Shown: positions 3,618 through 50,482, numbered from the stretch's first letter. The stretch is DNA of 64,000 nucleotides from Candidatus Kerfeldbacteria bacterium RIFCSPLOWO2_02_FULL_42_19 (GCA_001818315.1 MHKF01000011.1:44825-108824); one strand, 5' to 3'. The notes: a model not told the origin generated them from the letters alone. Numbers and translations are program-made.

Positions 3618-4217
3618 ATGTATTTACCGAAAACAATTCAGAAAGCTATCGAAGCTTTTAACACACTTCCTGGTATAGGGAGTAAGACAAGCGAACGATT
3701 CGTATTTTATCTTTTACATCAATCCAAACCTCAACTTGCGGATTTTGCGAGCGCGATTGCATCGTTGAAAGATCGTGTGACGTTGTGTGAACGCTGCTTT
3801 AATTATAGTGATCAACATCCTTGTCATGTATGTTCGGATCCTAAGCGTGATCCACAACTGTTGTGTGTTGTAGCCGAAAGCGTTGATATTATCGCTTTAG
3901 AACGTTCGCACGTCTTCCGTGGTCTGTATCATGTGCTCGGTGGACTTGTTGACCCCCTGCACGGTATTGAGCCTGAACATTTACGGATTCGTGAACTTCT
4001 TTCACGCGTTATGACTGAGGGCATTCAAGAAGTCATCCTCGCAATGAATCCGACAGTCGAAGGTGAGACCTCTGCACTTTATCTTCAGAAACTCCTTAAA
4101 CAATCGCCAATCAAAATAACACGTCTCGCGAAAGGGTTGCCAACAGGAAGTAACATTGAATATGCAGATGAACTCACCCTCGCTTCTGCCTTTGAAGGCC
4201 GACGCGTTATACATTAG
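3618..4217 (+). CDS. recR: Recombination protein RecR
   Basis: HhH segment (LPGIGSKTSERFVFYLL), C4 zinc finger (CERCFNYSD...CHVC) and a Toprim region; 199 aa. Confidence 0.92.
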   Translation: MYLPKTIQKAIEAFNTLPGIGSKTSERFVFYLLHQSKPQLADFASAIASLKDRVTLCERCFNYSDQHPCHVCSDPKRDPQLLCVVAESVDIIALERSHVFRGLYHVLGGLVDPLHGIEPEHLRIRELLSRVMTEGIQEVILAMNPTVEGETSALYLQKLLKQSPIKITRLAKGLPTGSNIEYADELTLASAFEGRRVIH

Positions 4218-4311
4218 AGGTCTGTCGCCCAGATACCGTTTCTGCTTCAATCGTAGAATTTCGTGACGAAAACGTATTCGACGATAGACCCATTAGATAA
4301 CTTTTCAAATC

Positions 4312-4726: not shown

Positions 4727-4885
4727 TTGTTATTGAGTTTGGTGAATAATGCTTTTTCGGAAACGGCGCGTTCCCGACGTGTCGGGACGCCTGCACCTCT
4801 CAGCCCCGAGCCCTTCGGGACCGAGCCTCGGGGCTTCCGAGAGCTTCCTCAAAAGCAGTATTCACCAAACTCGTTATTCAATAAC
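4727..4885 (-). ncRNA. GC-rich nested stem-loop element between DUF192 stop and rplU start (candidate terminator plus r-protein leader, or small RNA)
   Basis: Outer 18-25 bp inverted repeat (GAGTTTGGTGAATAATGC / GCAGTATTCACCAAACTC) enclosing about 70% GC helices (GGCGCGTTCCCGAC/GTCGGGACGCC; CTCTC..CCCCGAG[CCCTTCGGG]..CTCGGGG..GAGAG) in an AT-rich genome. Confidence 0.4.
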
Positions 4886-28971: not shown

Positions 28972-29043
28972 TTCTATGATATTCGAAACTTAAGTTTTTG
29001 TCAAAGTACTCATGAAACTGCCGCCAAATACCGTTTCTTGTAC

Positions 29044-29134
29044 AATGCGCAGAACAAAAGAGGAGGATGACTCTCGCTTTCGAAGCACTAACACTGCACA
29101 GTGTGCTGAGAAAGGAGAGTCTTCCTCCTCTTTT
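29044..29134. repeat. Palindromic repeat element, copy 1 (bidirectional terminator / REP-like)
   Basis: AATGCGCA..AAAAGAGGAGGAtgactctcGCTTTCGAAGCACTaACACTGCACAGTGTGCTGAGAAAGGagagtcTTCCTCCTCTTTT; second copy at 50101-50192 with about 90% identity. Confidence 0.7.
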
Positions 29135-29254
29135 GCGTTATATATCGAACAAGAAATAACATTCGGCGACAGCCTCCTCATGTGAAGCTTACTCAAATAC
29201 ACTTATTTCTAAGTAACCTAGCCATGGAGCGAACGTATAATTCTCAATTGAGTT

Positions 29255-42606: not shown

Positions 42607-42914
42607 ATTTTATGTTTATACATTATTTTAAACAGAAATGGGAATGATTGTATAGGTTACCTTATTTAACATGACATATGCAACTCATATGAGAAAATAT
42701 GTGTATGCGTATACAATCAAAGGAAATCATCCGTTCTCTTAAAAAGAACGGGGGCTTGCCGCGCGGGCTGTCAAGGCAGAAGCATATGCGATGCATTTTG
42801 CATCATGCATAAGTTAAGATACATATTGCACTCGCTCAGGGGAAAAGGAGTATAATAACAATGTAGAATACTCTCATGAAATACATTCGATATAATTGCA
42901 GAAAACTTTCATGA

Positions 42915-47206: not shown

Positions 47207-50062
<2,856 letters not shown>

Positions 50063-50100
50063 GATCTCTATTGAGACTATCGACGAATACGATTTCTTGT

Positions 50101-50192
50101 GCAATGCGCATAGAAAAAGAGGAGGAAAACTCTTGCTTTCGAAGCACTGACACTGCACAGTGTGCTGAGAAAGGAAAGTTTTCCTCCTCTTT
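50101..50192. repeat. Palindromic repeat element, copy 2
   Basis: CAATGCGCAtAGAAAAAGAGGAGGAaaactcttGCTTTCGAAGCACTgACACTGCACAGTGTGCTGAGAAAGGaaagttTTCCTCCTCTTTTT between convergent gene ends. Confidence 0.7.
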
Positions 50193-50482
50193 TTCTATGA
50201 TGAAAATTCATTTTGCAACAGAAATGGTATTCGGGGCGACAGCTCCATACTATCCCTTCCTTGCTGTCGCCATACAAATTCTACAAAAAAAATGGGGTTA
50301 TTTTCAAATTCTTACTCACTATGACTCTCTAGACCCGTGAGTGAATACGATCGTCAATAACCCCAATAATGTAAGTAAGATCTGATCCGTTTTAGCTCGT
50401 GTATTTCACTTACAACTGAGTATACCAGACACATTGAGTATTTTGCAATCAACCGAGAGAGAAAGCTTGTACCAAGCTCATG

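Follow-up and report, generated by a model that had tools for sequence, protein, structure and literature searches.

Palindromic repeats of the window

The 64-kb window, by which the whole stretch of DNA analyzed here is meant, carries two related palindromic repeats between genes and one shorter relative. Copy 1 stands between the end of a 971-aa gene and the promoter of the next gene (TTGACA-17-TATCAT). Copy 2 begins 10 nt past the stop codon of a metallophosphatase gene (50060-50062) and lies between convergent genes. The short member has the RecR gene as its neighbor, followed by the convergent gene for ribosomal protein L21. In a blastn comparison of the window with itself, the pair 29013-29134 / 50072-50193 (122 bp, 86% identity, E 2e-34) is the sole significant dispersed repeat, and its 40-nt core, GCTTTCGAAGCACTNACACTGCACAGTGTGCTGAGAAAGG, occurs exactly twice against a chance expectation of 0. 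The preliminary description had placed an element of about 90 nt at 29.0 and 50.1 kb. Both places proved correct, but the length did not: similarity and palindrome extend outward on both sides, and the complete units measure 163 bp (copy 1) and 174 bp (copy 2). The features are as follows.

29014-29176: copy 1, complete predicted MITE (consensus ends; family profile by nhmmer 29016-29175, E 1e-49; extended fold)
29009-29013: copy 1, left 5-bp target-site duplication CTCAT, identical to 29177-29181
29014-29055, plus strand: copy 1, left arm GAAACTGCCGCCAAATACCGTTTCTTGTACAATGCGCAGAAC, which includes AATGCGCA (pairs with the right arm; alignable with left arms elsewhere in the family)
29056-29134: copy 1, hairpin core made of an A-run, a stem of ~30 bp and a T-run (fold, covariance model)
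29135-29176, plus strand: copy 1, right arm ending in ...GAACAAGAAATAACATTCGGCGACAGCCTC (fold, family alignment, end consensus)
29177-29181: copy 1, right 5-bp target-site duplication CTCAT, identical to 29009-29013
50073-50246: copy 2, complete predicted MITE (consensus ends; family profile E 1e-45)
50109-50199: copy 2, hairpin core with a 14-nt loop, TGACACTGCACAGT, at 50148-50161
4218-4291: third member, a predicted mini-MITE of 74 bp that consists of two terminal repeats only (87-91% identity to the ends of the core-B subfamily)
4213-4217 and 4292-4296: 5-bp duplication ATTAG of the third member; the recR stop codon TAG falls within the left duplicate

Each unit consists of a left arm, a hairpin core and a right arm that repeats the left one in inverted form. 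The left arm begins with GGGWCTGTCGCCGAATAC and continues with TTTCTTGTGCAATGCGCA or a longer variant, and the terminal inverted repeats that bound each unit (~33-40 bp) share GGGWCTGTCGCCGAATAC as their consensus outer end. These ends (GGGWCTGTCGCCGAATAC... and ...GTATTCGGCGACAGWCCC), which are inverted repeats of each other, align over 21 complete elements belonging to three subfamilies. Element ends were set by matching consensus 12-mers of the family, in copy 1 through GGGWCTGTCGCC and GGCGACAGWCCC. The elements range from 74 to 187 bp and enclose no gene. Extended folds of copies 1 and 2 turn the whole unit into a long imperfect palindrome; a repeat search reports inverted-repeat arms of 58 nt, 72% complementary, for copy 1 and a perfect outer stem of 23 bp for copy 2 (50109-50131 / 50177-50199, 100% complementary). 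The stem of copy 1 holds a tandem GA/GA internal loop and is capped by the 14-nt loop TAACACTGCACAGT at 29089-29102. An 8-nt leader, AATGCGCA, had been described in front of the hairpin; it is present in both copies (29044-29051 and 50103-50110) but is not a separate feature, as it belongs to the left arm. An unfiltered run of the covariance model over the window returned copies 1 and 2 only and no further diverged cores.

Other repeats are also present. Just upstream of the minus-strand L21 gene, an inverted repeat at 4735-4872 has 28-nt arms that are 89% complementary and stand 82 nt apart; it has no Rfam match and may be a structured leader. A 93-nt intergenic block at 42661-42752 recurs with 94.6% identity on a second contig of the same genome (L004 4328-4419). 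Within this block, a possible ORF of 23 codons (MTYATHMRKYVYAYTIKGNHPFS in the window; the other copy differs at three amino acids) precedes a GC-rich hairpin. The block has no Rfam match and is not a member of the MITE family. It neighbors an asparagine synthase gene in the window and groEL in L004. A link of the block to heat-shock operons was considered and abandoned, since the 640-aa gene next to it in the window encodes asparagine synthase and not DnaK. L004, from the same genome, also has a CIRCE-like inverted repeat (TTAGCACTC-N9-GAGTGCTAA) at 4258-4286, upstream of its groES/groEL region.

Coding capacity and gene context

Two spurious ORFs overlie the copies: one annotated as a hypothetical protein of 78 aa across copy 2 (50104-50340, equivalent to L021 3894-4130) and one of 57 aa across copy 1 (29012-29185). 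Such short ORFs had been thought to be by-products of nucleotide conservation, and the searches agree: they have no Pfam match, and their database relatives are solely translations of other copies in the same genome. A search of 5.8 billion proteins gave just the ORF itself and one other copy of the same genome, and the coding hypothesis was rejected. Several copies carry frame-shifting indels of 1 nt.

Copies of the element are almost entirely intergenic, and several lie 1-12 nt from a stop codon. By rough ORF calls, about 10 are found between convergent genes, 13 between tandem genes and 3 between divergent genes.

Family size and host genome

A scan of public metagenome contigs with the apex 20-mer gave 21 matches at 19 loci, which correspond to 13 distinct bait-carrying copies after the removal of redundant assemblies. 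Profile and covariance-model searches added copies with variant apices, copies with other cores and divergent copies. The family amounts to about 30 members, and not two, dispersed on several contigs of one genome. Approximately 22 have the hairpin core, comprising about 19 elements and three divergent ones (L002 4787-4876, L047 947-1036 and L047 1896-1981). Four core-B elements, which have a different palindromic core, and three or four ends-only or short elements make up the other subfamilies. All three subfamilies share the same ends and differ in their core.

L004 encodes a GroEL and L017 an HtrA-like protease that are identical to proteins of Candidatus Kerfeldbacteria bacterium RIFCSPHIGHO2_02_FULL_42_14, the genome to which the window is assigned, and the remaining loci resemble these two in contig-name prefixes and G+C content. 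All copies are taken here as probably belonging to one genome or species population. The possibility that L002-L020, at 85-90% identity, came from another organism by horizontal transfer was rejected on the exact match of the L004 and L017 proteins to the Kerfeldbacteria genome. Within the elements, at 29085 and 50121 of the window, short-read unitigs of the same strain are interrupted, as is expected because the element is a repeat. Segmental duplication carrying flanking gene fragments, named at the outset as an outcome that would tell against a dispersed element, is excluded since the flanks of the copies are otherwise unrelated.

Outside this host, the apex 20-mer found nothing related in 185,579 species-representative genomes; its one match, in L001 (Stappiaceae), is taken to be due to chance, with no similarity past the bait. 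The apex pattern had 0 matches among viral contigs, and ten viral-contig matches to a 17-mer of the element end are likewise chance hits, none of which extends past the pattern. A plasmid collection searched with a core-B element yielded nothing meaningful. No Rfam family was found in the window or at both loci at gathering or permissive thresholds; the sub-threshold look-alikes included miRNA precursors and plastid psbA 3'UTR, the latter at 27-33 bits where the cut-offs are 48-56.

Some members occur in arrangements of more than one element. In L003 (6149-7313), two hairpin elements with identical cores in direct orientation flank a GDSL-lipase-like gene (270 aa), with CTTAAA and CTGAAA as outer flanks; this arrangement looks like a composite transposon and resembles TIME-COMP structures. 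In L017 (6963-7214), members are nested or abutting: the left end of a hairpin element is replaced by an ends-only mini element, and an end fragment follows. This cluster suggests that members insert into one another or recombine among themselves.

Signs of insertion

Perfect identity of the two 5-nt flanks (5/5) is seen in 7 of 21 complete elements, against 0.5% of mismatched left/right flank pairings, and identity at 4/5 or better in 10 of 21, against 6.9% of mismatched pairings. A/T accounts for 86% of the left 5-nt flanks; the window as a whole has a G+C content of 41.8%. Two perfect duplications, AATAG and ATTTT, fix the element boundary, at which the ends read GGGT or GGGA. The duplications are degraded in about half of the copies; the flanks of copy 2 (CTATT / ATACT) do not form a clean duplication.

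Relatives of the host were compared at the site of copy 2. The syntenic ligA-metallophosphatase-pilin locus (with gatC) of three relatives, whose proteins are ~78%, 50% and 50% identical, lacks the element, and the gap between the convergent genes measures 0 and 3 nt in two of them versus 420 nt in the window. No match to the family occurs in 41 kb of sequence from the relatives. Their intergenic DNA is too divergent for a precise empty site with a single 5-mer to be aligned. Every sampled strain or assembly of the species carries both insertions (copies 1 and 2), which gives no sign of current activity.

Between copy 2 and the pilX-like gene, the window contains a further ~236 nt of non-coding DNA (50247-50482), where two relatives have 0-3 nt between the same genes. 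This stretch starts with GCTGTCGCC, which pairs with the right end of the element, and holds nested inverted repeats (GGGGTTATT...AATAACCCC). The last part alone aligns with the closest relative (L049), and the whole may represent the remains of an older insertion.

Reading as a MITE family

Bacterial MITEs derive from IS elements or transposons; they have inverted repeats and are non-autonomous. The two repeats of the window are very probably copies of one such family in a single groundwater genome of Candidatus Kerfeldbacteria (CPR/Patescibacteria). Their inverted-repeat ends, 5-bp duplications, dispersed copies, absence at the orthologous site of relatives and lack of coding capacity are together the defining features of a MITE; the earlier suggestion of a MITE-like element is the one that these data uphold, with about 30 dispersed copies. 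Like other bacterial MITEs, the Kerfeldbacteria elements are small, have terminal inverted repeats and target duplications, lack an ORF, lie dispersed between genes and fold as a whole into a hairpin. They differ in being a new sequence family, with no match in Rfam or among the plasmid, phage/viral and species-representative sequences searched, and in their CPR host. The sequence family has not been described before; the kind of element is ordinary. No report of MITEs in CPR bacteria was found in the literature searched.

In the proposed mechanism, a transposase encoded elsewhere would bind both ends and move the element in trans. Insertion would take place at AT-rich sites through a 5-bp staggered cut, and repair of that cut would leave the 5-bp direct duplication. 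We infer that mobilization in trans is performed by a DDE-type transposase with a Tn3-like signature. Pfam annotation of the window, of the 10 kb flanking it on either side and of ten ORFs beside element clusters showed housekeeping genes only and no transposase gene with these ends.

A close parallel in form is offered by the Correia elements (CREE) of Neisseria, which are likewise intergenic, of 100-160 bp, and bounded by inverted repeats. Correia element transcripts fold into long hairpins, and an effect on the transcription of neighboring genes and on RNA processing has been reported for them. In contrast to the Kerfeldbacteria elements, Correia elements duplicate the dinucleotide TA, and the ends of the two families are unrelated.

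Pairing and covariation in the hairpin core

RNAfold gives copy 1 a folding energy of -51.0 kcal/mol (z -8.6) and copy 2 one of -51.7 kcal/mol (z -10.1). None of 200 shuffles was as stable, which bears out the long hairpin proposed for both copies. The opposite strands fold nearly as stably (~-51 kcal/mol on the plus strand and -49 kcal/mol on the minus strand). Covariance model R1 scores copy 1 at 105.5 bits and copy 2 at 103.5 bits. Over 20 family members, 92.7% of stem pair cells form standard pairs and 20 of 30 stem pairs show two-sided changes, values that 0 of 500 shuffles reach; when the registers of the core alignment are slid, paired cells fall to 49-65%. Pairing of the hairpin core is maintained across the family.

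The particular base-pair change on which attention had first settled does not hold up. A compensatory change from C-G to T-A was claimed between the copies (CTCTC/GAGAG to CTCTT/AAAG), but in the family alignment its two sides do not lie in register. The C>T change (column 27 of alignment A3) affects one pair and the G>A change (column 69) another, and copy 2 is left with one G.U wobble and one C.A mismatch; RNAfold restores pairing at this site solely through a bulged C. A genuine compensatory change is present a few bases further out, where GAC/GTC in copy 1 corresponds to AAC/GTT in copy 2 (G-C to A-T); beside it, copy 2 has an A-T pair in place of the T.T mismatch of copy 1. The conclusion that selection acts on structure is not established, as it rested on the mis-registered pair.

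The real covariation can be explained without selection at the RNA level. The two-sided changes may reflect selection on the hairpin, arm-to-arm correction in folded single-stranded DNA, or descent from different perfect-palindrome master copies. All four combinations of two arm variants are present, a pattern that points to exchange between arms or between copies. Mismatch cells are balanced, with 19 G.U versus 16 A.C (an A.C on one strand being a G.U on the opposite strand), and in tandem gene contexts the apex is oriented sense in four cases and antisense in five. This absence of strand or orientation bias argues against an RNA gene on one strand. The symmetric pairing fits a DNA-level palindrome or a signal that works both ways.

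A conserved 14-nt loop, T.ACA..RCACAGT, is closed by CAC/GTG. The same loop recurs on stems of different sequence at L002 4787-4876, L012 888-977 and L047 947-1036. The last of these has a perfect 31-bp stem, ~63% identical to the family stem, between degenerate ends; at L047 1896-1981, a perfect stem of ~25 bp also lies between degenerate ends. Apparent conservation of the loop is inflated by the use of the loop 20-mer as bait for most copies, and copies found by profile differ at three or four loop positions.

Possible role in transcription termination

Among the other readings of the hairpin, a possible one, though not the one we favor, is that it is primarily a bidirectional intrinsic terminator or insulator selected by the host, and that the terminal repeats merely reflect how it arrived. 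Copies would then persist, and stay paired, by ending transcription from both sides or by serving as RNase III sites. Nearly all copies read AAAA(A)GAGG...CCTCTTTT(T), so that an A-run, a strong stem and a T-run directly after it are present on both strands, as in bidirectional terminators. Being a palindrome, the core reads nearly alike on the two strands; transcription from either direction would yield a long hairpin with U's behind it, which could end transcripts or lead to their processing. Most copies adjoin at least one gene 3' end, and many lie between convergent genes, again as such terminators do, or separate the end of one gene from the promoter of the following one. Copies with degenerate ends keep perfect stems (31 bp at L047 947-1036 and ~25 bp at L047 1896-1981), and pairing is kept through the 20 two-sided pair changes. 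However, a few copies lie in divergent (5'/5') regions (e.g., L047 1896-1981 and L003 7129-7313), and terminators require neither perfect stems of 30 bp nor a conserved 14-nt loop; the Kerfeldbacteria stem is far longer (~30-40 bp, 14-nt loop) and forms part of a mobile unit. Sites of the same kinds are also taken by members that have another core or none, and location may therefore just reflect where a genome with hardly any intergenic DNA to spare tolerates insertion. The perfect pairing itself may stem from arm correction at the DNA level or from the recent origin of subfamilies. A simple terminator scan gives the hairpin no score because the loop is 14 nt long.

Termination or insulation in both directions, or RNase III processing of the long duplex, is plausible as a by-product or secondary role of the hairpin core. 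A domesticated state of the core is unlikely: here, the host or the element would keep the pairing and the 14-nt loop of a MITE-borne module even after its ends degenerate, as a two-way terminator/insulator or a binding or processing site, distributed over a streamlined CPR genome whose intergenic spacers are very short, or the loop would act as a second signal for the mobilizing enzyme.

Relation to Tn3-family elements

A Tn3-family origin, in which the elements would be TIME-like MITEs mobilized by a Tn3-type TnpA, is doubtful. TIMEs and Tn3-family transposons produce 5-bp AT-rich target duplications (PMC4133298), as do the Kerfeldbacteria elements, and Tn3-family insertion uses a 5-bp stagger with a conserved box A, GGGGT, at the ends (PMC9579193). 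The ends of the Kerfeldbacteria elements are ~38 bp long and start with GGG(T). In the core-B subfamily, the first 11 nt of the end, GGGTCTGTCGC, match the Tn3 repeat (GGGGTCTGACGC) at 10 of 11 positions. The likeness is limited to these outer 11 nt, and homology of the ends to Tn3-family repeats was not found by the box A comparison: they start with GGGW instead of GGGGT, and they have no inner TAAG. In full-length alignment to Tn3 and Tn501-type repeats, the ends do no better than 14-100% of shuffles. The Tn501-type 38-mer used for this comparison is present in thousands of plasmids, and the instance inspected was not beside a Tn3-family transposase. No Tn3-type transposase is encoded in the inspected regions (the window with 10 kb to either side of it, and ten ORFs). 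Furthermore, 5-bp duplications are also made by other groups of transposons. Among these are Mu, Tn7, Tn402 and IS2, whose ends start with TG.

TIMEs share with the Kerfeldbacteria elements the 5-bp AT-rich duplications, ends of ~38 bp, the lack of a transposase and mobilization in trans, which for the Kerfeldbacteria elements is presumed, and mosaic TIME derivatives recall the subfamilies that have different cores between the same ends (PMC4133298). They differ in size (262 bp versus 74-187 bp here) and in their ends (GGGGT versus GGGW). The Kerfeldbacteria elements are described here as working like a Tn3-type MITE, not as members of that family.

Structured RNA and REP-like readings

It is improbable that the repeats are small structured RNA genes, an option raised in the preliminary description, or cis-regulatory RNAs, with a functional (protein-binding or kissing) 14-nt loop. 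The loop with its CAC/GTG closure is the best conserved part of the element and sits on differing stems (L002 4787-4876, L012 888-977 and L047 947-1036), and stem covariation is strong. In contrast, no Rfam family reaches threshold, with just generic hairpin look-alikes far below; neither strand is favored by the mismatches (19 G.U versus 16 A.C); and orientation to flanking transcription is about even (four sense, five antisense). The putative RNA has no conserved promoter. Loop conservation is exaggerated by the bait, with copies found by profile varying in the loop, and terminal repeats with target duplications account for the copy number without any RNA function.

A REP/REPIN-type repeat dispersed by a RAYT (HUH tyrosine transposase), or simple segmental duplication, is hardly credible: the repeats are indeed intergenic, palindromic and multi-copy, and the whole unit is an imperfect palindrome like a REPIN doublet, but the 5-bp target duplications are significant and are not a REPIN feature, the flanks of copies are unrelated, and the annotated regions (the window and 10 kb on each side) contain no RAYT-like gene. 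REPINs have no target duplications and depend on RAYT enzymes. With the REP/REPIN and ERIC repeats of proteobacteria, the Kerfeldbacteria elements have in common that they are intergenic imperfect palindromes, often at gene ends; the REP-like option suggested earlier is not supported, given the presence of the duplications.

Implications for annotation and for CPR genomes

Recognition of the two repeats as probable MITEs bears on how such genomes are read. The element accounts for hypothetical protein calls (e.g., 50104-50340) and for breaks in short-read assemblies of the species. It also calls for caution in the use of covariation, as palindromic mobile DNA gives apparently compensatory changes without being an RNA gene. 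If the core terminates transcription both ways, insertions would supply terminators between tightly packed genes, such as those separated by 0-3 nt in relatives at the site of copy 2. More broadly, a CPR/Patescibacteria genome that is small and streamlined can accommodate a family of non-autonomous transposons that has expanded and whose cores are modular.
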